Assembly: GCA_000092065.1 (NCBI GenBank)
Contig: CP000582.1
Reading direction: 5' to 3' (one strand)
Length of the DNA: 64,000 bases
From: Ostreococcus lucimarinus
Lineage: Eukaryota
Part shown: in pieces, positions 33,511 to 48,816 of the stretch
Position numbering within the stretch: position 1 is the stretch's first letter
How the letters are laid out: every line of letters begins with the position of its first letter
Program-made: the position numbers and the translations under genes
The notes under the pieces: model-generated
Told to the model about the DNA's origin: nothing
The model's input: only the letters and a program-made list of their open reading frames with translations
Database searches by the model: none

Positions 33511-36500
33511 TCAATCGCTCAATTCGTCCGCCGGAACGAAAGACGCCGGCGCCTTCTTCGCCTCGGCGACGTGTCGGTTCCGTTCCTGCTTCCTCTGTTG
33601 CGCTCGACCAGCGACCGGCGATCGGCGCGCGACATGCTTTGCCGCAGGCGATGGTTTGCGAAGTGGTGATGGTTCATCGTCTAACATCGCCAACTCGTCG
33701 ACGACGCGTTTCGCGAGCGCTTCAGATTTCGCCTTGCGACGGGGATCGTTCTTCGTCTGAATAACGACGCCGGGGTGACGAACAATCGGATGCGCGCGAC
33801 CATCGCCACCGCGCGATGATGTCGCCGACACGGGAACTGCGGTAAAGACTTCATCATACGGCGCTTGCTTTACGTGCTCCACGAACACGTTTCGCGTTTT
33901 GGCGTTCTCGATTAAATCCAGCCACACGGCCTCGCGTTTGAGCACCTCGGCGTAACCCACGATCCACGTCGAATATCGACCCCGCGTGAGCGCCACGTTT
34001 AATCGTCGCTCGTCTCTGAGAAAGCCGATATCCGTATTCGGCGGATCGGGGGCGACTTTGTCGCCTTCGGGGTACGCGCGAACGCACGAGATGATCACGG
34101 CGTCGAACTCTTGTCCTTGCACTTGATCAACGGTACCGTACGTCACATGCGCCCACGTCCGAAGCGCGCCATCTTTCTTCAACAATGGCTCCACGAAATC
34201 GCGCAAACGTCGCACTTGATCCAAGTAGGGCGTGATGATGCCAACCTTCACTTCACTCTTGTGGAGTTGCGCCGAGACGGCTATTTTCTTGTAACAATAC
34301 GACGCGAACTCTGCCTCGGCGGAATTGGAGAAGGAGCGCGCGCCAGTCTCGTAGCGATCTTGGTTCATTTGACCCTTAACGTTGAAGAACTGATACGGAC
34401 CGCAGTTAGAGAAGGAGTGCCACGGCGCGACGCGATCTTCGTAAAGAGCGCCGGCGCCGCTGCGCAGTAAACCTCTGTAAAAGCGTTCACTCGGAAACTT
34501 GACGATGTCTGGATGCATGCGATATTGATCCCGAAGCGTAAAAGTGGGTACACCACAGTCAGACAGACGTTCAAAAAGACTATATCCGTAATAGGCTCGC
34601 TGCGCTGATCTGGAGATGACAGTCGGTGCGAGCTGCTGCGAATCTCCGACCATGATTATGACGCCGTCGGGCTTGATCCACTGCAACGGAATCAGCGCCG
34701 CCGGCTCGACAGCTTGCGACGCCTCATCGATGATGACGACGTCAAAAGGTTGAACTGAGCAATACGGTCGCGAGTCAGCAGCGCGCGGTGCTGCGTTTGA
34801 CGGCTTTTTAACCAGTTGTGCCATGGAAGATAGCGTCCCGCACACGACATTTGAACGGTCGATGACGCGCTCAAAAGGCGTCGACACGACAACGCTGCCT
34901 TCAATTCTTCCCTCTTCGGCGAGTTTCGCCTTCAATTTCGCGTGCGCCGCGTCTTGGATCGCGAACAATTGAGCCTTCTTTGCTTCCAGATCGACTAGTG
35001 CCTGACTATACACCGGGACACTATCCTTAAAAGACTTTTGACGATTTCGCAATCGCGTGACTTCGAGTCGAATCTGCGCCTCGACTTTAGTTCTCTCCGC
35101 TTTCGCATCTCGAACCTTGCTCTCGTAATACGCTGCGTTTTGAGCGTACGTGTTGTTTTCGCGACCTTCTACGTCGACACCGTATTCTTTGAGCTTCGTG
35201 CGCACGTGACATCTCTCCGAAGCTGAACCAGACTTGATTTTTTCATCCGTACCGATTCGAGTGACGTCGACGCCTCGAAGGCATTTTCGTACTTCCGCGT
35301 GCACCGAAGATCCATCAACGAGCCGATCAACGATATGATCAATCGCGGCATTCGTTTGCGCCGTACATATAATTCTCTTCCGCACGGGATGACCATATTG
35401 GTCGACGCCGTTCAAAAGCGCCGCTATCAAGCTCACAATGACGTGCGTCTTCCCAGTTCCCGGTGGTCCTTGAATCAGCACCGGCAAGTCACGACTAGAT
35501 GCGTGCTCATGCGCGCAAGCACCGAGCACGGCTTGGCGCTGCATTGGATTTAGCGATGACTCAACCGCACTTAAAGCCGGCGCAGCGATGTACTGATCGG
35601 CATCGTCGAGGGTGTCGAACAACGACGAGAGCTGCAAAACTTTGTTGTTAATTCTCGATAGAAAATGCTCGCTCACGTCGAGCGCTTGCAGCTCTCGAAG
35701 CGTCGTCGCGAGCTCGAACACTCGCGTCACCTTAAGGCGAGTTTTCATGGTGTGAAGCTTGCGCGACATTGACGTTATACGCACGCCGGAGTTCGGGGCA
35801 AAGTGCATTCTGATAACGACAGTTTCGTTCGACGCATCCTTTTTCGCCGATTCCACCCAACCAAACACGTAGTGCGTCGCCCGTTCCTTCACGGGGCTCA
35901 ACGGGTCATCGTCCTCAAGAAGATCCATGTTTCGCTGTTCGAATGCGTACGAAATGGTTTCAATCATCACCAGATCGTCCGTTTTGAATACCGAACGAGC
36001 ATTGTCAGAGTTGGCTTGTGACGCGAGCGGCTTTGACAGCTCAAACGTTTCAAACACACTCGTCGAATTGGCTACGTCTTCTTGCCGAAGCTTTGACACG
36101 GTGAAGTCATCGCTGTAGAGTCGATCGCAGGTCTGGAGCGCACGATCTACGTTCGCGCGCAACTCGGCGAGAATGAGCGGAATGAAATGCTCTCTGTACT
36201 CGTGAGCGTTCGCGAACGACCTCGGCGGACTTTCGCGGCTTAAGCGACTGTCCTTCTCGTGTAGCGTCACATCCCCATGCCGCGCCTGCACCGTATCACT
36301 TTTGAACTGCTCTTTATTGAGGCACAGAATGCTTCGGATGAGCGTCTCTACGCGATATGGAGAGCGGCGCGAGCTTGATGGCTTGAACTGGCGGCTGACA
36401 TTGGAGACTGGCACAAGAGCCGGCGCACGCTCGGCACTGCTGACGGCGGGTAGGACAGTCATGTGCTTCTTCACTCTCGTCAGTGATGCATTAGATGTTG

Positions 36501-39500
36501 ACACTCGCTGCTTTGACTTCTTCGAGGTCGCTGAAGGTGGTGGCATCTCCATCACTGCAGTCGTCGTTTCTTTGCTGATTCGCCTCTGTTGCTGATTTAT
36601 CGCGTGATAATCCTTCGCTTTGGCAACCTGATAGCCCGACGTCGTCGTACTCACCCGTCCACGTGTAACGGCGGTTTCCGATAATTCTATCGACGCCACG
36701 GTTTTCCTGCGATCCAAGTTGTACGTTTTCGTGGTAGGTTCGCGCTTGCGCATTTTGAACGCCGACGACTTTGCCGCGTCACCCTTCGTCGACGACGGTG
36801 AGACATCCTCGTTGGATTTGCGCTTCACCGATGCGAATAGCTCCTTGGTAGCTTTGCGTTTGGGCCGCGTTTTCTTTTGGTCCGTCGGCCGCAACCATTG
36901 GGGGTCATTCGACGTCGGCTCGTCGTCCTCTTCATAGGGAGTAACTCCGAATTCTTCGTCTGAATCCAGCGCCGGGACCGCCGCGCTGATGCGATACGGC
37001 GATGAAGTCTCGGGAAGTGGTTCATCGATCACCACGACGTCTCCGATATTTTCTTTCTCTCCCTCGATGAATAGCGAAACCATCGAAAAGACACTCTTAA
37101 GCTTTTCTTTGATATTGTCGCTTAGTGCGGCGTCGCCGCGCATGCTCAATAGCTCGCGAACACGCTGGCGCCAATCACTCTCGTCTCGAATGCTCACGCC
37201 CGGTGAAGAGGGCTCATCTGAAACTTCAGTCTTGAACAATCCAATGCAATCCAGCCAAGCATCTGCGATCCCCTCCTCCGCTGACCCTATAAAGCTCGCG
37301 GGCTCCCAAGCGAGAAGATTCCTCAGAATGTTCGCCGGCTGCCTGTTGAAGATGTGCTCTTGCTCGCGTGCTTTGATCAATTTCCAGTACATCGTGAGCA
37401 TGCTCAACATACTGTAAAGAATGTCATCATCGGCAGCCAAGGCGCGTCGCGGCGCGTGCTGCGTGATCGTTTCGAACACACCGATTGAGGAAATCAACAC
37501 CTTGGTCACGTTCTCGCTAAACGTCCGCAAGCGCGCCTTGTCATCTTTATCGATCGCCTTCACGAGATGATGTGTCTGTACAATCGGCGCGCTCGCGGCC
37601 TTAAGTAGCTCGCTCACGTCTTCAGACGTTTCTGAAGGCATCCGTTTCACGTCTTTCAGTGCGCAGTGCGTCGCACCGAGCACCGCTTTGGGAATGTCCG
37701 TGTGCTCGTCGTCGAGAAACATCTTCTTGTAGCAGTTCTCTCTGTTATCTTCTGCGTAATGCTTCTTCAAAACTTCACCCGCAGCCGCTACCAGCGACGT
37801 GCGTTGTGACATCATGCACATTACCGCACCCTCGGTACACTTTGGAGTGTATTCGGAACGGTCAAGCGGCCTCTTGCTCGATTGGCTCTCCGGGCAGTCG
37901 AGTAACGATTTGAAAAACCATTCCCCACACTTGCCAAGAAACTTTCGCAAGCTATTCGCGTTCTCTTGGTTTTCCGGCACGATCTCAACATACGGAAAGA
38001 TACCACGCATCGCATCGTTTTCACTCTCGTCGTCATTCCGCGCGAATGGCGCGATGAGTCCCATGGCGTACATGACTGCGCTCACATATCGCGGTCTGAG
38101 GACGCCCGCGTGCATACTGTTGATCGCGGACATACTATCGAAACCTAAGGCGTACTTCCACATGCTCGTGTTGATTTTCCACCTCTTTTTCTGTCGAATC
38201 GTGTTCAAAATTTTCAAGTGCAACTCGCCCAACGGGGTCTCGCCTCTGATGCGCTTCTCTCGAGCCCATCTCTCCGGTTCGAAGGCAAAAAACGCCGGAT
38301 CAGCGAGCGCGCTCAAAGCGATGGCGTCGGCGCAAATGACGTATCCAATCGTGTCCACGAGACTACCACCTAATGCGTTTCGGGCTTTCGTCGCCTCTCG
38401 AGAAAGATCCCGGTCTGTGGCGACGCTCTTGGTCCAATCCATACCAACCGTACTGAACCAGTCGCCCAAAGTCAACACAGCATCGTCCACGCCGATTTCA
38501 GAGTACTGCTCCTCGACCGCTCTGCACGCGGCAAGGCGGCTGGCCCACTGTACTTCGGCGCTGAATGTCGCTTTTGAATGCGGGATATCTGCAGCGAGTA
38601 TGTTCATAACCTGCCTCGCCTGTACCGCGTCGCCCGTTGGAAGGAGAAGGTAGACGTACTTTAACGCAGTCAACGCGCAAATCTGTTCCGCCTTTCTATC
38701 TTTAGGCAGATTCAGCGCCGCTTGAAACAAATCTTCAATCAAATCCGCGCGATCAACGCCGACGCGTTCCCAAAACGATTTCGCCGCCTTCGGTCCACGA
38801 GGTAAAGCCTTGAGAATCACTTGGATGACTTCGCACGCGTTGCTCGAGAGCGCGCGCGCGCCTTTTTCGTTTGATCGTTTCATGGCGCATGCCGCCAAAC
38901 GGAAGACGATGGGATGCGTCGTGAACACCTCGCGCACTATTTGGCTATCGCTTCGCTCTAACGTATACGCCAGCGCAAACCATAGCCGTGCCTCCACCGG
39001 GACGAATGGCTCGTGATCCTTGGGCACGTCGTCGCGAATCTCCTCGCACAATGTGCGCCTCGCCGATTCTCTCTCCACCTGAGCTCGGGCTAAACACTCG
39101 ATCCAAAACGCCAACACCTCGTCCACAACGTCCCTGAGCGCGTTATCGCTCGTCAACGCTCGCATGCGCGTCTGTGGTAACCCCGTATCTGCATCCATCA
39201 CCGGCTCGCCGTTTTCATCCGTCTCGGGCTCCGACAACAACTCCTTAACCGACTGTCTCGTCTTGCTGTCATCGATCGCGAGCAGCGCAAACAGTCCCGG
39301 AAACGACCCACACGGTCGCTCCCGTATCTCTCGCATCAAAGAATTCGCCCACTCATCCCCACCCGCCTTCGCCTTCTCGCAAGTCTCCGCGAACGCCCGC
39401 GCCGCCGCCTCGTAAATCGCCCGTCCTCTCGCCGGCGCCGGCGCCGTCAAAATCTCCCTCAACGCGTTCCCTCTCGCGCACTCCCTCAAAAATTCCGTCT

Positions 39501-39909
39501 CTATCCGATCACTCGTTCCTTCGCAATCAAATCCTCGCTCAACGCGTTCAAAATCAAACCTCAACCGTTCGTTCTGAGTCGCCTCTTCGTCTCCCGTCGA
39601 CTCGACGCCGCCTCGCGCGTCTCGCGCGTCTCGCCGCAGCTCCAAAAACCCATCCAGGCACCGCTCGCACGTCGACGTGCAGTTCACGCTCACGACGCGC
39701 GCGTTCTGTCCCTCATCGACGCGTCCGCGTCGCGTCGCGCGATCGACGCGGCGTTTCGCGACGTCGAGATCGCGCGCGTTCGCCACGAGCGTCGCGTCGT
39801 TCGCGAGTTCGCGCTCGAGGGCGTCGTACGCGATGCGCGCGACGTCGGCGTCGCCGCAGTACGCGTGCGTGCGCTCGACGTCGGTGAGCTCTTCGAACAG
39901 GCGCGGCAT
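33511..39909 (-). CDS. SEN1/senataxin-like superfamily-1 RNA/DNA helicase (Upf1-like helicase core at C-terminus)
   Basis: 2133-aa single exon; C-terminal helicase motifs LIQGPPGTGKTHV (Walker A), VVIIDEASQ (DEAS box), NVALTRGRYSTWIVG; long helical N-terminal region as in Sen1. ATG at 39909 (MPRLFEEL). Confidence 0.8.
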   Translation of the reverse strand: MPRLFEELTDVERTHAYCGDADVARIAYDALERELANDATLVANARDLDVAKRRVDRATRRGRVDEGQNARVVSVNCTSTCERCLDGFLELRRDARDARGGVESTGDEEATQNERLRFDFERVERGFDCEGTSDRIETEFLRECARGNALREILTAPAPARGRAIYEAAARAFAETCEKAKAGGDEWANSLMREIRERPCGSFPGLFALLAIDDSKTRQSVKELLSEPETDENGEPVMDADTGLPQTRMRALTSDNALRDVVDEVLAFWIECLARAQVERESARRTLCEEIRDDVPKDHEPFVPVEARLWFALAYTLERSDSQIVREVFTTHPIVFRLAACAMKRSNEKGARALSSNACEVIQVILKALPRGPKAAKSFWERVGVDRADLIEDLFQAALNLPKDRKAEQICALTALKYVYLLLPTGDAVQARQVMNILAADIPHSKATFSAEVQWASRLAACRAVEEQYSEIGVDDAVLTLGDWFSTVGMDWTKSVATDRDLSREATKARNALGGSLVDTIGYVICADAIALSALADPAFFAFEPERWAREKRIRGETPLGELHLKILNTIRQKKRWKINTSMWKYALGFDSMSAINSMHAGVLRPRYVSAVMYAMGLIAPFARNDDESENDAMRGIFPYVEIVPENQENANSLRKFLGKCGEWFFKSLLDCPESQSSKRPLDRSEYTPKCTEGAVMCMMSQRTSLVAAAGEVLKKHYAEDNRENCYKKMFLDDEHTDIPKAVLGATHCALKDVKRMPSETSEDVSELLKAASAPIVQTHHLVKAIDKDDKARLRTFSENVTKVLISSIGVFETITQHAPRRALAADDDILYSMLSMLTMYWKLIKAREQEHIFNRQPANILRNLLAWEPASFIGSAEEGIADAWLDCIGLFKTEVSDEPSSPGVSIRDESDWRQRVRELLSMRGDAALSDNIKEKLKSVFSMVSLFIEGEKENIGDVVVIDEPLPETSSPYRISAAVPALDSDEEFGVTPYEEDDEPTSNDPQWLRPTDQKKTRPKRKATKELFASVKRKSNEDVSPSSTKGDAAKSSAFKMRKREPTTKTYNLDRRKTVASIELSETAVTRGRVSTTTSGYQVAKAKDYHAINQQQRRISKETTTAVMEMPPPSATSKKSKQRVSTSNASLTRVKKHMTVLPAVSSAERAPALVPVSNVSRQFKPSSSRRSPYRVETLIRSILCLNKEQFKSDTVQARHGDVTLHEKDSRLSRESPPRSFANAHEYREHFIPLILAELRANVDRALQTCDRLYSDDFTVSKLRQEDVANSTSVFETFELSKPLASQANSDNARSVFKTDDLVMIETISYAFEQRNMDLLEDDDPLSPVKERATHYVFGWVESAKKDASNETVVIRMHFAPNSGVRITSMSRKLHTMKTRLKVTRVFELATTLRELQALDVSEHFLSRINNKVLQLSSLFDTLDDADQYIAAPALSAVESSLNPMQRQAVLGACAHEHASSRDLPVLIQGPPGTGKTHVIVSLIAALLNGVDQYGHPVRKRIICTAQTNAAIDHIVDRLVDGSSVHAEVRKCLRGVDVTRIGTDEKIKSGSASERCHVRTKLKEYGVDVEGRENNTYAQNAAYYESKVRDAKAERTKVEAQIRLEVTRLRNRQKSFKDSVPVYSQALVDLEAKKAQLFAIQDAAHAKLKAKLAEEGRIEGSVVVSTPFERVIDRSNVVCGTLSSMAQLVKKPSNAAPRAADSRPYCSVQPFDVVIIDEASQAVEPAALIPLQWIKPDGVIIMVGDSQQLAPTVISRSAQRAYYGYSLFERLSDCGVPTFTLRDQYRMHPDIVKFPSERFYRGLLRSGAGALYEDRVAPWHSFSNCGPYQFFNVKGQMNQDRYETGARSFSNSAEAEFASYCYKKIAVSAQLHKSEVKVGIITPYLDQVRRLRDFVEPLLKKDGALRTWAHVTYGTVDQVQGQEFDAVIISCVRAYPEGDKVAPDPPNTDIGFLRDERRLNVALTRGRYSTWIVGYAEVLKREAVWLDLIENAKTRNVFVEHVKQAPYDEVFTAVPVSATSSRGGDGRAHPIVRHPGVVIQTKNDPRRKAKSEALAKRVVDELAMLDDEPSPLRKPSPAAKHVARRSPVAGRAQQRKQERNRHVAEAKKAPASFVPADELSD

Positions 39910-40004
39910 CGCGCGCGCGCGCGCGCGCCACTGGCGACGGGCGTCCGTCGATCGTCGTCGCGACCACCGGTCGCACTTTAAGCCTCGCCTCAACCGCCGT
40001 CGAC

Positions 40005-41240: not shown

Positions 41241-41336
41241 ACGCTGTTGTCATGAATGAAACGATCTTGTATGCGACTAAAGCGAGGTGTGAATTGTTCG
41301 GGTAAATGCTGTTGTACGACTAAAGCGAAGCGTGAA
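41227..41336. repeat. Imperfect direct repeat (about 66 plus 44 bp) in shared 3' UTR region between DDI1 and PFL
   Basis: attgttcggttaaacgctgttgt...gactaaagcgaggtgtga followed by attgttcgggtaaatgctgttgtacgactaaagcgaagcgtgaa. Confidence 0.6.
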
Positions 41337-43707
41337 AAGTACGAGCGATGACTTCCTCTTGATGTGCTCGCGAGAGTTTGATGAAATTCACCGCATACCC
41401 GCTCACGCGAATGGTGAGGGTGGGATAGTTGTCTGGATGCGCCATGGCGTCTAACAGTACCGATCTATCGATACAGTTAACGTTCAAATGTTGAGCGCCG
41501 TGTGAGAAGTAGCCATCCAGCAACGCAGTCAAGTTCGAGACTCGAGTCCCGTCCGTCTTGCCGAGCGATGGCGCGGTGATGGAGAACGTGTTGCTGATGC
41601 CATCCATGCAACTCGCGTACGGGATCTTTGCCACAGAATTGAGTGAATTCAAAGCACCCGTCTTGTCGCGATTGTGCATCGGATTCGCGCCCGGCGCGAA
41701 CGGTTCACCGAGTTTTCGCAAATCCGGCGTCGCGCCAGTATGTTTCCCGTACATGACGTTGGACGTAATCGTCAGAATCGAAAGCGTGTGCTCGGATCCT
41801 CTATACGCTGGCGTCTTTCGTAAACTCGAGATGAACGTTTCCACAACACTGGCGGCGATGGTGTCAACCTCATCGTCGTCGTTGCCAAACGCGGGCCAAT
41901 CGCCATCGACCTCGAACCGAGTGGATAATCCCGACTTTTCGTCGCGAATCATCTTGACTTTTGCGTGCTTGATGGCGCTGAGAGAGTCGGCCACAACGCT
42001 CAACCCAGCGATGCCGAACGCCATCATCCGCTTGCAATCGGTGTCCATGAGCGCGAAAAACAAGGCCTCGTAGTTGAATCGATCATGCGAGTAGTGGATG
42101 CAGTTCATCGTCTCCACGTAAAGCTTGGCGAGCCAGTCCATGTACGCCGTAAAACGCTTCATCACGTCATCGTATTGTAAAACACCTTCAGGAACTTCGT
42201 CGTCGAAAAGCGCGGGCGCGACGCGGGCGCCGGTGATTTCGTCGCGACCGCCGTTCAGCGCGTAGAGAAGAAGCTTGGGTAGATTGCATCGCGCGCCGAA
42301 ATATTGCATGGTATGCCCCAACTGCATTCCCGACACGCAACAACTGATACCGACGTCGCTCGATTGAAACTTTTCCCGCAGTAAGTCGTCGGAGATGAAC
42401 TGAATTGAGCTCGACTCGATGCTGATCGCCGCCGCGAATTCTTTAAACGGCTTCGGCAACGATTCGCTCCACAAAACCGTCATGTTTGGTTCCGGCGCCG
42501 CGCCCATGTTGCGTAGCGTTTGTAGAAACCTCCAAGAAGTCTTCGTCACCAACGTGTCGGTGCCGTTCATCTGCATGCCACCCACGCAACACGTGGCCCA
42601 GATGGGATCGCCGGCGAAAATGTCGTCGTACGCCTCCGGTCGAAGATGCCGAACGAGTCTCAGCTTGAGCACAAAATTGTCTATGAGTTCCTGCGCGCCC
42701 GATTCGTCGATGAAACCAGCCTTCATGTCGCGCTCGATGTACACATCAAAAAAAGCGTCGACTCGACCGAGAGAAATCGCCGCGCCGTCGTGTTCCTTCA
42801 CGCACGCGAGGTAGGCAAAGTACGTCCACTGAACCGCTTCTTTGCAATCGCGCGCGGCGGCGCCGATGTCGAAACCGTACATTTTTGCCATCGCCTTGAG
42901 CCGCTCCAACGCGCGAATTTGCTCCGACACCTCAAATCGTGCGCGCAAGTCCTCCTCGTCGCTCGTCGCGATGGCATCTTTGTCGATTTGCTTCTCCGCG
43001 ATCAACCGATCGACGCCGAACAGCGCCACGCGGCGATAATCCCCGATCAAGCGCCCTCGTCCGTACGCGTCCGGGAGCCCGAGCAAGAGATGCGCCTTCC
43101 TCGCCGATCGCATTTCATCCGTGTACAAGTCGAAAACCGCGTCGTTGTGCGTCGTGACCCAATCGTCAAAAAACTTCTTCGCGTCCTCCTTCATCGTCGC
43201 GCCGCGCTCGCCCAGCGCCTTCTCCACCACGCGCAACCCTCCCAACGGCTTCATCGTCCGCGTGAGCGCGCGCGTCGTCTGCAGCCCGACCACGACGTCG
43301 TCCACCTCCTTCGACAGCACGTACCCCGCGCCGTGCGACGTCGCTCGCGACGGCGTCTCCGCATCCACCGCCAGCGCCCCTCCCGCGCGTCGCTCCAGCT
43401 CGAGCAACCGCCGCGCCTCCGCCAGCAGTTCCAGCGTCTTTCCCGTCGGTTTCGCGAGCGTCGTCGCGCAGTCGTCCGCGCGCGGCGTTCCGCGCGCGCG
43501 CACGAACGCGTCCACCGCGTCCACCGCGAGCGTCATGTCGTCGTCGTCGTCGCGCTGTGCCGCGCGTCGTCTCGCGTCGTCTCGTCTTCTCTCGTCTCGG
43601 CTCGGCTCGGCTCGGCCGAGAACGTCGATTCGCATCCCGACCGAACCGTCGCGAGATTCGCGTCGACGGTCGACCGCGCGCCACCCCCCCCGGCGTTCGC
43701 GCGACAT
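41320..43707 (-). CDS. PFL: Pyruvate formate-lyase (glycyl-radical enzyme, formate C-acetyltransferase) with organellar presequence
   Basis: Colinear with PFL: ...[24 protein letters not shown]...; active-site Cys pair in [10 protein letters not shown]; C-terminal glycyl-radical motif [33 protein letters not shown]. Arg-rich N-terminus from the ATG at 43707. Confidence 0.9.
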
Positions 43708-43759
43708 TCCGAGGCGACGCGCGCGAATCTCGACGGCCGCCGACGCGCGCGCGCGGGCG

Positions 43760-46700
43760 ATGCGCGCGCGATGGGACGCGCGACGCGCGGGACGCGCGCG
43801 CGCGGTCGTCGCGGTCGTCGTCGCGGCGCTCGCGCTCGCGAAACGGGCCGCGGGGGCGACGCACGCGGTGACGATCGAGACGGGATCGGCGCTGAGCGGA
43901 CGACGCGACGCGGCGACGGGGACGCAGGAGGCGCTGATCATGGTGACGCACCCGGCGGACGTGACGGTGGACGAGGCGGACAAGGCGAAGCTGACGAAGG
44001 TGTTTAAGACGCAGACGGAGGCGTACTTCGCGTGGGCGTCGTACGGGGCGCTGACGCTGAACGTGTCGGTGTTCTTTCATCAGCTCGGTTCGAACGAGAA
44101 GGACGCGAACGGGGCGTGTAATCCTCACCCGGATGCGTCGGCGGCCGACGGCGTGCATTATAACCCGTGGGATGCGAGCGCTGATTTTCAAGAAGTGTAC
44201 GATTCGTACGCGGGCGACCCCGGGACGAACCGAAACTCGGGAAGGAAACACATGCGGACGTTCATGCATTTGACGAACACGTGCACGGGGACGTGCGAGT
44301 CGAACACGAACGGCATCATCTGCACGCAGAAGCACTCGTCGGTCACGGCGTGCGCCGACGCGGATTCCACGACGGAGTTGTGCGATACGACGGAGATTCA
44401 CGAGCTTTTACACGCAATCGGGCTCAAATATCACTCGGGCGGGTACAAGTGCAAGCAGTCGGATTACGACGACTCGACTACGACGTGGCGGCTCTGTGAG
44501 TACAAAGATTACGGTGGCGTCTTCGATGTCTTGGGCTCGGGCTCGGACACGTACGGGAAAAAGATGGCGTGGGGCGTTTCTTCGTATTTAAGATGGGACA
44601 TGCACTGGCTCTCTAACGATAACGTGAAAGTCATCACGAAGACCAACGGACGCGTTGACGACGACGCGGCTGATGTGAGTGAAACGTGCATCCTGAGTTC
44701 GTTGAGTGTTGATACGACGGAGTCCTCGACAACGCGCGCGTGCGTCGTTCGTTTCTCTGATGATACCATGTCGGATTTGGGTACGATCTGGCTCGAGCTT
44801 CGAAGTGGCAACAAGTTCGACAATCTTATCCTTAACGGCGAGCACAGCGGATTCAACTCTCTCGGTGTGCTCGGTTATCACGAAGGGAACAAGTTGATTG
44901 ATTTCTACCCACACGCCGCTGATTCAACAGACGCTGCGAAATACGACGACTGGGAACAGACGGCGCTGAGATCGACAGAAAACGGCGGCGTTTGGATAGA
45001 CCCCGTGTCAGGACTAAAGTTAACGGTAGCCGCGTTCGATTCAACATCTCAAACGATCACGGTTACCGTCACGTTTGGCCAACCGGCGGAGTGCAGCAAA
45101 AGAGGCGCGAAGGCGTATCCGAGTCAGTTTCTTGGCTACGGGGTGTGGCACGTCCGCATGTCAAACGACAGCGAGAAAGATAAGTATTATCCAAGCGTCA
45201 ATTTGGCCGATTATCCCGGCGACGCCTCGTCGATCACGAATGACAACTTCAGAACCAATTATTTCACGACTTCTTACTTTGATCAGTACATCCCTTATGC
45301 TGATAGCGGAATTCAGTATACGGTGCAACAAAAAGAATGCTATAAAGTCGTGCTGCAGTATAGAATGAGCGTGCAAAATTTGGATTACGGCGCGTGCGCG
45401 AAATCTCACTTGACAGTGCGCGGGTTGAATCTGCCCGCCGGTTGGCGAGTTGACGAGGGCGGATGCGTGAACGCAGCAGGCGCACAAGCAGTCGTCGACG
45501 ATATATGTTTCGTCGTCGCCGTGGACCCGAACACTGCCGATGGCGCTTACGAAATCCGAATCCAAGCCGCTCAAATCAACTACAGCGATAAAGCAGTGAT
45601 GGCGGCTACGGAGACTGTCCCACTCTGGGTTTGCGTGGGCGGATACAACCATTATACTCAAGCGTGGGGTGACAACGCTTGGACGTGTGACTACGGGCCC
45701 GTGGGATCTAAAACCAGGGTGACAGGTAGTTCTGGCACAATAATCAACCGGGCGTCGAGTACGTACGAGGCGAGCTCGACGTATTATTCGACTTCGGACG
45801 TCTCAGCGAGGAAGAGCAGCACGGCGATTCATTACACCCGGAATCCTGAGGTCACGAACGACGGCGCTGACCGTCTGCAATCAATGTCCAGTATCGCGAT
45901 CGCAGAAGTGAGCGATGATCGTTGTTATCAAGTTACGAGCACGCGATACTGCTCGGCCAACCATTACGTCTGGAGTCAGTACGTCTGTTCGGCGTGTCCG
46001 ACAGACTCAACCCGCCCTGAAGGCGATGATAGCTGGCTGGCCGACGGCGAGACACAGTGCTCGTGTCCAGACGGAACCGCTTGGTCAAACGGCATGTGTG
46101 TCCCTGCCGCCTCGTGCTCCGCGGACGAACGCGTGAACAGTGCCGGTGCGTGTGTGGCGTGTCCATCTGGCTCGACGAACGAGGCGGGTGACGTCGCACC
46201 TGGGACCGAGACCAAGTGCGCTTGCGCCGCGAACTATCGCGTGAACAGTGCTGGCGCGTGCGAGGCGTGTCCATCTGGCACGACGAACGCGGCGGGTGAC
46301 GTCGCACCTGGGACCGAGACGCAGTGCGACTCTGCCGCCTCGTGCTCCGCGGACGAACGCGTGAACAGTGCTGGTGCGTGCGAGGCGTGTCCATCTGGCT
46401 CGACGAACGCGGCGGGTGACGTCCCATCCGCGGGCGAGACGCAGTGCGCTTGCGCCGCGAACTATCGCGTGAACAGTGCCGGTGCGTGCGAGGCGTGTCC
46501 ATCTGGCTCGACGAACGCGGCGGGTGACGTCCCATCCGCGGGCGAGACGCAGTGCGCTTGCGCCGCGAACTATCGCGTGAACAGTACCGGTGCGTGCGAG
46601 GCGTGTCCATCTGGCTCGACGAACGCGGCGGGTGACGTCCCATCCGCGGGCGAGACGCAGTGCGCTTGCGCCGCGAACTATCGCGTGAACAGTGCCGGTG

Positions 46701-47653
46701 CGTGTGTGGCGTGTCCATCTGGCTCGACGAACGCGGCGGGTGACGTCGCACTTGGGACCGAGACCCAGTGCGTCTGCAATGATGGCTACTCACTTTTGAA
46801 TGGTGAGTGCGTTGAGTCAACCGAGGTTGAAGTCAAGGTTGAGTTCGCGGGAATCACACAAGTCATCGACGATACCCTCGTGCAGACGCTCCAAAACGCG
46901 CTGACGACGTCGCTTTTGGCAGACACCACTGGCGTTCAAGTGGACCCGGCTAATATCACCATTAAGTACACGATGCTAGGAAAGCAAACGTTCTCGTCCC
47001 CTGTGGATGAAAGCTCGTTCATCACCGCCGCCGCGTCGTCGTTGGGTGTCGCCACGTCTGACATTGAGAACTTTGCGCAAAGCGCGGCGCGCAGGCGTCT
47101 ACTCAGCAACATCGTGACGTATCAAGTCGTGACGACGAATAGAGCGACGTTGAACACAGCTTTGTCTGCGGCAAGCTCTCCAATCACCGTCGGCGGCGTG
47201 ACTGGAACGGGTGCCGCACCGACGACGACGATAGCCGCCGAAATCAAGACAGCGATCCCGACTTCGCAGGCGTCCACCGTCACTGCGACTCTCAATGATC
47301 CATCCTTCACTACGGATATCGCAACATCAGCCTCGAACGCGGGTGTCAGTGGTATCTCGATCTCTTCGCCGCCGTGCACTGGACTCACGCAGCCTGCGAA
47401 CGGCGTTTCTGGTACGTGCGGCTCCGAGCTCGCCAGCGGCTCGTCGTGTCAACCGACGTGCAACTCTGGGTACACCGTGAGTGGCCAGACGACATGCATC
47501 GCCGGTGCGCTCACGGCCGCGACGTGCTCGAGTAACAGCGGCTCATTATTTGGCGGCTTCTTGGGCTTAGTATCCGCCGCAGGTGTTCCGCTCTTCCACG
47601 TTGACACAATTTTGCTCGCAACGGTCGCGCTAGGCGCGCTACTCGCGCCGTAA
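43760..47653 (+). CDS. Large secreted/GPI- or TM-anchored metzincin-type zinc metalloprotease with about 7 ephrin-receptor-like Cys-rich repeats and a sushi-like domain
   Basis: Signal peptide [27 protein letters not shown]; zinc motif [15 protein letters not shown] (HExxHxxGxxH); tandem [25 protein letters not shown] modules (ephrin-receptor-like/TNFR-Cys); Ser/Thr-rich stalk; PPCTG...[17 protein letters not shown] (CCP-like); C-terminal hydrophobic tail [29 protein letters not shown]. Confidence 0.7.
46100..46790. repeat. 108-bp near-identical coding tandem repeat x about 6-7 (ephrin-receptor-like modules)
   Basis: Blocks gcagtgcgcttgcgccgcgaactatcgcgtgaacagtgccggtgcgtgcgaggcgtgtccatctggctcgacgaacgcggcgggtgacgtcccatccgcgggcgagac repeat almost perfectly at the nucleotide level. 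Confidence 0.85.
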
Positions 47654-47841
47654 ATTCGGCGACGCCACCCGAAAGAATGTATCATCACTTAAATCCATCG
47701 CTCACGCGCATCGATCGTCAATCGTTCGCGTGATGAATTGCTATTAGTAACTTGTTTTCCTCTCGCCTCGTCTCGAAAGTCGATTCTTATCCCGAGACTC
47801 TGCACTCCACGCCACTTCGCGACGACGACGACGAACGAAAA

Positions 47842-48816
47842 ATGCGCGACGACGACGAAAAAGCCCAACCAAAAAGCCCAACATTTTGCTTTGCCACCAA
47901 GCGCCGCGGAGCTTTTCCGCCACGTCCGCGACCGATCGTTTTCCTGCCGCCCGAGCGCAACTACGCGGCGCGGGGCTTGGGGCTGCTCGGCGGCGACCCG
48001 GCGAGCGCGGCGGACATCGAGGACTGCGGTGCGGTCACCGGGCGCGTGCACAGCATCGATACTTTCACCGCGGTCGATGGACACGGAATACGATGCATCG
48101 TGTTCCTTCAAGGGTGTGAAAAACGATGCGCGTTTTGCTGCAACGTCGATTCGACGCACGCCGCGCTCGCGAAGACGCCGAATCCCGGGCGCACGATGTC
48201 GGTGAACGATATAGTCGAAATTTTGAAGCGAAATCGCAAGTATTACGCGAGCTCGGAGGGAGGTGGGCTAACGCTTTCCGGGGGCGAATGCCTGTTGCAA
48301 CCGGCGTTCGTGGAGGCGGTGGCGATCAAGACGCACGAGATCGGCTTGACGGTGGCGATCGACACCGCCGCCAGTGGGGACGCGGAGACGTGGAATCGCG
48401 TGTTGCCGCACGTTGACGTGGTGCTGTTGTGCGTGAAGAGCTCGAGTTTGGAAAAATACAAAGCCATCACCGGTACGACGGAACGCGAGTACGAGACAAT
48501 GCGCGCGTTTCTGAAAGAATTGAATCGCCGCCGTGTGAAAACTTGGTTGCGATTCGTGCTCATGAGCGATCCGGATTCTCGATTCGTCGACTTTCGAACG
48601 AACGACGAAAACGAGCTCCGCGGTCTGGCGGAGCTCGCGAAAACACACGAGTGTGTTGAGGGAATTGAGCTTTTGCCCTATCACAGATTCGGCGAGTTTA
48701 AGTTCAGCGAGCTCGGTCTCGAGTACAAGCTCGAGGGCATGCGGACGCCCGACGCTGAAGAAATTCACGCGGCGCAGACGTTTTTGCAATCTCAAGGCGT
48801 GACGGTGATTTGCTGA
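47842..48816 (+). CDS. PFLA: Pyruvate formate-lyase activating enzyme (radical-SAM glycyl-radical activase)
   Basis: GRVHSIDTFTAVDGHGIRCIVFLQGCEKRCAFCCN carries the CxxxCxxC cluster motif in the PFL-AE context; GGGLTLSGGECLL SAM-binding motif. The ORF-track start is TTG; first ATG at 47842; an upstream exon cannot be excluded. Confidence 0.8.
   Translation: MRDDDEKAQPKSPTFCFATKRRGAFPPRPRPIVFLPPERNYAARGLGLLGGDPASAADIEDCGAVTGRVHSIDTFTAVDGHGIRCIVFLQGCEKRCAFCCNVDSTHAALAKTPNPGRTMSVNDIVEILKRNRKYYASSEGGGLTLSGGECLLQPAFVEAVAIKTHEIGLTVAIDTAASGDAETWNRVLPHVDVVLLCVKSSSLEKYKAITGTTEREYETMRAFLKELNRRRVKTWLRFVLMSDPDSRFVDFRTNDENELRGLAELAKTHECVEGIELLPYHRFGEFKFSELGLEYKLEGMRTPDAEEIHAAQTFLQSQGVTVIC

Follow-up and report, generated by a model that had tools for sequence, protein, structure and literature searches.

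The question raised by this locus is what kind of protein is encoded by a long gene at positions 43760-47653 of a 64,000-nucleotide stretch of the Ostreococcus lucimarinus contig CP000582.1 (the whole stretch, at its full length, is called the window here), and whether its product can be a working protease of the cell surface. The gene is a single uninterrupted open reading frame (ORF) of the plus strand, which from the ATG at 43760 to the stop at 47653 encodes 1297 amino acids (aa); a first-pass annotation of the same DNA had called the protein giant, and large it is, but not giant. The interpretation that we favour, with some caution, is that of an active, surface-tethered metzincin-type protease, whose head, judged from the sequence and a predicted structure, is probably a functional zinc endopeptidase with an InhA-like two-domain core, standing outside peptidase family M6.

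The probable catalytic head and its relation to metzincins

The head and the segments next to it are the following:

43856-43936, plus strand: short segment between signal peptide and catalytic domain (aa 33-59), in which GSALSGRR is conserved in the 58% identical orthologue; possibly a pro-segment or a dibasic processing site, to judge from its residues
43937-44623, plus strand: metzincin-type catalytic domain (aa 60-288), with a beta-alpha-beta core, the active-site helix, a disulfide-braced loop (C231, C246), YGxxxDxLG and a C-terminal helix (R278, W283)
44399-44434, plus strand: zinc-binding motif HExxHxxGxxxH (aa 214-225; H214, E215, H218, G221, H225), from the sequence and the family alignment
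44624-45094, plus strand: beta-rich domain packed behind the catalytic domain (aa 289-445), by its likeness to the InhA viral-envelope-glycoprotein-like domain
45095-45679, plus strand: middle beta-sandwich-like domain (aa 446-640), which occurs alone in other proteins

The zinc-binding motif spans 12 residues, with its third His at i+11; the first-pass annotation had misread it as HExxHxxGxxH, with that His at i+10, but was right to place a zinc motif after a signal peptide, the signal-peptide-like hydrophobic segment being found at aa 13-34. An exhaustive HMMER search of 1.84 billion representative sequences gathered a family of 43 proteins with an expectation value (E) of at most 1e-3, whose named sources are the bolidophyte Triparma eleuthera and a craspedid choanoflagellate, the remainder coming from environmental assemblies; a word-index search seeded with the alignment added almost no further members. 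The family corresponds to the N-terminal 390 aa of the window protein. In a domain alignment of 22 sequences the conservation of H214, E215, H218 and H225 is 90% or more, C231, C246, Y251 and D256 are invariant, and G252, G259, R278 and W283 nearly so. Also conserved, 32 residues after H225, is YGxxxD-x-[LM]-G, followed by the helix that carries R278 and W283. Among 37 near-identical alleles the polymorphic sites number 9 in aa 201-350, 29 in aa 51-150 and 25 in aa 451-550, and the core (aa 201-350) is under purifying selection, to judge from its low polymorphism.

The same assignment is suggested by an AlphaFold2 model of aa 60-450, built on the family alignment, with a predicted local distance difference test (pLDDT) score of 82.5 and a predicted template modelling (pTM) score of 0.85. 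The first beta-strand starts at aa 61, and the predicted fold contains the elements of a metzincin catalytic domain, namely a mixed beta-sheet, a backing helix, an active-site helix ending at a Gly and a lower subdomain; HExxH is located in a helix that ends just before G221, and the beta-rich domain lies tight behind the catalytic domain, as in the M6 thuringilysins. In the reading favoured here H214, H218 and H225 would hold the zinc ion, E215 would be the general base, and the beta-rich domain would pack on the catalytic domain in the manner of immune inhibitor A (InhA) of Bacillus.

Structurally, the nearest relative is InhA/thuringilysin (MEROPS M6, Bacillus anthracis, PDB 4yu5), with which the window protein shares the two-domain core at an identity of only 11%. 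The third zinc ligand, a His in the window protein, is an Asp at i+10 in the thuringilysins (PMC12237041). A MAM domain was not found in the window protein, nor did Peptidase_M6 of Pfam or the M6 domain of NCBIfam match it; because of these three differences the head is not regarded as a member of M6. Unlike InhA, moreover, the window protein is eukaryotic, is predicted to be membrane-tethered and has a long Cys-rich stalk. As for the ADAM-type metzincins (ADAM17/TACE, ADAM8, ADAM10), a Reprolysin match was obtained only below threshold and in one distant relative; unlike ADAMs, the window protein has no disintegrin domain, no large cysteine-switch prodomain and no cytosolic tail, and its Cys-rich modules are tandem 36-aa units unrelated to the Cys-rich parts of ADAMs. 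Leishmanolysin GP63 (M8) and Chlamydomonas gametolysin (M11) are likewise extracellular zinc proteases of protists or algae with an HExxH-based motif, and GP63 is anchored by glycosylphosphatidylinositol (GPI), as the window protein may be. By analogy, the closest working comparison would be with a surface metzincin of the ADAM or the GP63 type.

The statement of the first-pass annotation that this is not a described protease family fits the searches, in which the window protein had no Pfam or NCBIfam hit and its relatives only NPCBM_assoc as a shared family and sub-threshold metzincin matches. In particular, no peptidase family was among the Pfam matches listed for 27 relatives, where NPCBM_assoc was the only shared family, and ten relatives rescanned in full gave Matrixin and Reprolysin_5 matches, all below threshold, with no bridge to a named family. 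Peptidase_M8, M11 and M43, which had been proposed as candidates, gave nothing above the gathering threshold, and Pfam scans of separate pieces of the protein likewise stayed below it. A phmmer search of the PDB with the whole protein returned one chance match only, and a profile search of the PDB returned exclusively metzincins, all of them weak and confined to the motif. As regards the middle domain, matches to other proteins in the representative search span only aa ~507-655; NPCBM_assoc is below threshold here (E 0.13) and reaches E 0.00047 in two relatives.

Several points weigh against a functional metzincin head. The canonical metzincin motif is HExxHxxG/NxxH/D (PMC12237041), and the third His of the window protein lies one residue beyond the corresponding position; the presumed Met-turn position is occupied by Leu258 and not by Met; the whole protein matches no Pfam or NCBIfam family at E ≤ 1, and its N-terminal 460 aa none at E ≤ 10; Foldseek found no significant match in the PDB, its best being ADAM8 at E 0.034, and missed InhA2; and the geometry of the zinc site around H214, H218 and H225 is a presumed one. 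The altered spacing, the Leu in place of the Met-turn Met and the lack of any match to a protease hidden Markov model (HMM) would also suit a catalytically dead pseudo-protease, the head of which would be kept as a binding module of a surface adhesin or receptor, all the more in a protein where adhesion-type modules abound (Cys-rich repeats, a sushi-like module, a beta-sandwich). We consider this explanation unlikely, given that the Glu and the three His keep their conservation down to about 23% identity and are present in every allele shown in full, that no other part of the protein is as little polymorphic as the active-site region, and that pseudo-proteases usually lose the Glu or a ligand. 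Two distant family members, P0081 and P0095, have the canonical HExxHxxGxxH spacing, so the eukaryotic subfamily has the appearance of a metzincin lineage that gained one residue in the motif, and the family would derive from ordinary metzincins; several relatives, moreover, have a Met at the presumed Met-turn position or one residue earlier. IgAse is an active metzincin with HExxHxxxGxxD, that is, with altered spacing due to a one-residue insertion elsewhere in the motif (PMC12237041). An active metzincin-type protease is the interpretation carried forward here.

Two side observations concern the variation of the head. The polymorphism-rich aa 51-150 (nucleotides 43910-44209) overlap a low-confidence loop of the AlphaFold2 model, and the other peak, aa 451-550, corresponds to nucleotides 45110-45409; both peaks could be due to relaxed constraint or to diversifying selection on exposed loops. 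P0053, a Logan assembly sequence aligned to aa 165-346 (nucleotides 44252-44797), has differences that are nearly all T->M/I, H->Y, S->L/F, A->V or R->C/W, which are the changes expected if every cytosine were converted from C to T; it looks like an assembly made from bisulfite-converted reads of the same gene and not like a biological variant.

The cysteine-rich repeat array

Between the middle domain and the C-terminal domains lie a linker and the Cys-rich stalk:

45680-45919, plus strand: Ser/Thr/Tyr-rich linker (aa 641-720), by composition, with no family match
45923-46114, plus strand: divergent Cys-rich modules before the array (aa 722-785), including one that ends in ETQCSC, from the sequence and sub-threshold Pfam matches
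46115-46774, plus strand: tandem array of six 108-nucleotide modules (36 aa, four Cys), from Tandem Repeats Finder, a repeat finder, pairwise comparison and alignment, with a 12-nucleotide insert at 46331-46342
46775-46810, plus strand: terminal half-module that closes the Cys-rich stalk (aa 1006-1017), from the translation

Tandem Repeats Finder gave a 108-nucleotide period repeated six times at 46115-46772 (score 921) together with a 228-nucleotide super-period (score 1052), and a 39-nucleotide core occurs six times against zero occurrences expected by chance. The array consists of six canonical 36-aa modules, with the insert placed after module 2; the earlier count of about seven modules is reached if the divergent module upstream (aa 743-769) is included, but only six are canonical. 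Pairs of modules are 84-99% identical in DNA: the description of the units as almost identical holds for modules 3-5 (94-99%, with modules 4 and 5 differing by one base), whereas the other pairs are at 84-93% and have a mosaic make-up, modules 1, 2 and 6 differing from the others at 8-17 of 108 positions. Module 1, for instance, begins like module 3, carries TGTGTG as module 6 does and ends like module 2, and such mosaic sharing of variant blocks points to unequal crossing-over or gene conversion. In P0019, which is diverged by 7%, modules 1 and 3 share the lineage-specific variants NER and DPSGD, which the modules of the window do not have, as expected of concerted evolution; the 58% identical orthologue (P0026) has no canonical array, which makes the expansion recent. 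Unequal crossing-over or gene conversion would both keep the modules alike and alter their number, so that the length of the stalk probably differs between strains and the array would be a variable-number locus.

This last conclusion is in line with the hypervariability predicted by the first-pass annotation, since the number of modules in near-identical alleles of other assemblies takes every value from 1 to 6, and these alleles make up at least 20 in-frame architectures that include chimeric modules, but it comes with a caveat. Two results weigh against it: the architecture of the array shows no association with the flanking haplotype, and exact repeats of up to 116 nucleotides occur inside the array, so that short-read collapse can mimic low-copy alleles and some of these may be assembly collapses. 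On this basis the array and its variability could be an assembly artefact, the true gene having a fixed and different number of modules, an explanation that would touch the claim on the stalk only; in its favour are also the many low-copy alleles that are simple chimeras of the outer modules, as would arise from graph shortcuts, and the fact that most of the contigs compared are metagenome assemblies. It is nevertheless improbable. Six modules are found independently in the window and in P0028, on a 330-kb JGI contig, and five in P0030, P0031 and P0038; the differences of modules 1, 2 and 6 make these resolvable; the diverged P0016, P0019 and P0020 have module variants and architectures of their own, which no collapse of the window allele could yield; and all the length differences are in frame. 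A genuine array, probably of variable length, is the reading retained for the stalk.

As a further observation on the stalk, in the MMETSP transcript P0020 most of the array is replaced by other Cys-rich sequence, with two extra sushi-like modules before the ferredoxin-like domains, a layout that speaks for a stalk remodelled not only in copy number but also through the exchange of modules.

With regard to the type of module, the 36-aa units have the same general CxxCPxG...C-x-C spacing as ephrin-receptor-like/TNFR-type repeats, a likeness seen at the level of sequence. Ephrin_rec_like (PF07699), the model suggested by the first-pass annotation, stays below its gathering threshold (12.3 against 23.1 bits, E 0.15), and so does TNFR_ELAPOR1_6th (PF23091; 14.9 against 33.2 bits, E 0.026); the divergent modules before the array give sub-threshold matches to the Pfam models TIL, ADGRF3_N and TNFR_ELAPOR1_6th. 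Disulfide-bonded modules of this TNFR or ephrin-receptor-like type would form a rod-like stalk.

Probable membrane anchoring and the C-terminal domains

The features on which the surface location depends are placed at the two ends of the protein:

43760-43855, plus strand: signal-peptide-like N-terminus (aa 1-32), with an Arg-rich n-region, a hydrophobic core and an AGA|T cleavage context, from the translation, the hydropathy and the orthologue P0026
46811-47359, plus strand: two ferredoxin-like (beta-alpha-beta-beta-alpha-beta) domains (aa 1018-1200)
47375-47527, plus strand: Sushi/CCP-like module with six Cys (aa 1206-1256), sub-threshold for Pfam Sushi and shared with other marine proteins
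47546-47653, plus strand: hydrophobic C-terminal tail (aa 1263-1297), from the hydropathy and the tail of P0026

Kyte-Doolittle hydropathy gives only two strongly hydrophobic segments, aa 13-34 and aa 1263-1297, and the second of these lies at the extreme C-terminus, where the first-pass annotation had placed a hydrophobic anchor. The tail runs to the stop without a charged cytosolic tail and is preceded by small residues (SNSGS). A classical signal peptide occupies the position of this N-terminal segment in P0026, whose C-terminus combines small residues and a polar spacer with a hydrophobic tail of 16 aa, resembling a GPI signal. Taken together, these sequence features suggest that the hydrophobic C-terminus is a GPI-type or a tail anchor. 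At the other end of the gene, a GC-rich microrepeat of 11/16 nucleotides at 43746-43805 overlaps the start codon and the Arg-rich n-region; P0016 and P0019 have an extra RARWDGT there, which amounts to a small length polymorphism of the signal peptide.

The last module follows the Sushi/CCP consensus C..P.NG...G..C...C..GY.L.G...C..G......C; however, it has six Cys, four on the consensus and two more, and the conserved Trp is replaced by Leu. Pfam Sushi (PF00084) scores 15.2 bits on aa 1206-1256, under the cut-off of 20.7 (E 0.03), so that the CCP/sushi-like domain announced earlier stands as a consensus-like module but not as a Pfam assignment; the two tandem paralogous modules of P0020 together reach 21.3 bits, and the AlphaFold2 pLDDT of the module is 45-56. 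The same module is found 58-71% identical in many proteins, otherwise unrelated, with FG-GAP_2, DUF285, RCC1 or Laminin_G_3 (P0111-P0125), where it is usually in tandem (often 2-4 copies) and often located just before a hydrophobic C-terminus. Its sequence context suggests a standard membrane-proximal module used by secreted and membrane proteins in marine assemblies, and its conservation, unusually high for a shuffled extracellular module, suggests homogenisation between genes. The ferredoxin-like domains belong to the same fold class as SEA domains; the likeness of the predicted aa 1018-1200 to SEA is a match that is not specific.

In the mechanism that we propose, the signal peptide would direct secretion and a GPI-type or tail anchor would tether the protein to the membrane, while the stalk and the ferredoxin-like domains would hold the enzyme head off the naked plasma membrane. 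The head could then cleave proteins at or near the cell surface: candidates are surface proteins of the alga itself, which would be shed or matured, proteins and peptides from outside, and proteins of viruses or grazers. The first-pass annotation had thought of a surface or matrix-processing enzyme of a picoalga; the surface protease is kept here, and a role in processing matrix or scales is speculation.

Another reading makes the protein mainly a variable surface determinant in conflicts of the host with viruses or grazers, be it the target to which a prasinovirus attaches, a decoy or a sheddase that strips receptors, with the array under diversifying selection for that reason; such a role would be compatible with a surface protease. 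In its favour are the surface-type architecture with its possibly length-variable stalk, the concentration of amino-acid polymorphism in predicted head loops (aa 51-150 and 451-550) and the nature of InhA, the closest structural relative, which acts in bacterial virulence by breaking down defence proteins of the host. We consider it very unlikely: nothing points to it directly, neither a change of expression nor a link to resistance loci, the literature searched gave nothing on it, and repeat variation is also the neutral expectation for any tandem array.

Genomic setting, expression and significance

The genes on either side of the protease gene encode a pyruvate formate-lyase and its activating enzyme:

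41320-43638, minus strand: pyruvate formate-lyase
47752-48816, plus strand: pyruvate formate-lyase radical-SAM activating enzyme

The same order of pyruvate formate-lyase, protease and activating enzyme is found in the marine metagenome contig L001. The two partner genes are kept apart by the 3.9-kb protease insert, and only ~120 nucleotides separate the start of the pyruvate formate-lyase gene from that of the protease gene. The GC content falls to 0.545 in the 44-46 kb segment of the protease gene; elsewhere in the window, an ORF of 2160 aa on the minus strand (33511-39993) lies in a GC dip of ~0.54, with surroundings at ~0.62-0.69. An antisense ORF of 295 aa at 45933-46820 was rejected as a gene, being merely the repeat array read in reverse.

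Three further ORFs of the window match O. lucimarinus CCE9901 proteins exactly (XP_001416072.1, XP_001416298.1 and XP_001416067.1), and the first-pass annotation was right in thinking of a wall-less picoalga. The 1297-aa product as delimited here has no exact-sequence match in the protein collection; over its N-terminal 720 aa it is 89-100% identical to 25 proteins, one of them derived from an MMETSP transcript and the others from marine metagenome assemblies. Homologues derived from MMETSP transcripts are P0020 (94% identical) and the orthologue P0026 (58% identical), so related alleles are transcribed. The allele P0028 bears in its JGI source the label "peptidase E", which was rejected: its only trace is a Peptidase_S51 match with E 1.5 in the Cys repeats, and the label probably stems from this chance match. 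The literature on Ostreococcus and Micromonas metalloproteases, gametolysin, metzincins and sushi proteins gave no report of this protein.

Cys-rich stalks that carry metzincins, and surface proteins polymorphic in repeat length, are already familiar, and nothing is overturned by this gene, the clan and the theme of its architecture being known. What is new is a family of catalytic domains that Pfam and NCBIfam lack, a zinc motif expanded by one residue on an InhA-like core in marine protists, and a recently homogenised stalk, probably variable in copy number, that bears such a head. A more ambitious proposal is that the head defines an unclassified metzincin family worth a MEROPS family of its own, with an InhA-like two-domain core, a His as third ligand and the expanded motif, patchily distributed in prasinophytes, bolidophytes and choanoflagellates, and that in Ostreococcus it is carried on a variable stalk and acts in surface conflict with prasinoviruses or grazers; in this full form we regard it as distinctly unlikely. 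The patchy spread across unrelated marine protists would suggest horizontal spread, and, if the proposal were true, receptor shedding or degradation of attack proteins would be examples of roles in such a conflict. As domain libraries miss this protease family, it is invisible in the annotation of marine metagenomes.

Few free-living eukaryotes are as small as Ostreococcus, whose cell has neither wall nor scales, so that the proteins of the plasma membrane are its entire interface with viruses, grazers, bacteria and dissolved organic matter. To our knowledge, little of the Ostreococcus surface proteome has an assigned function. The candidate variable-number repeat may serve as a strain marker and would allow the relevance of stalk length to be tested, and the gene as a whole supplies a tangible candidate for an expressed ecto-protease, whose conserved catalytic residues are accessible to mutation.

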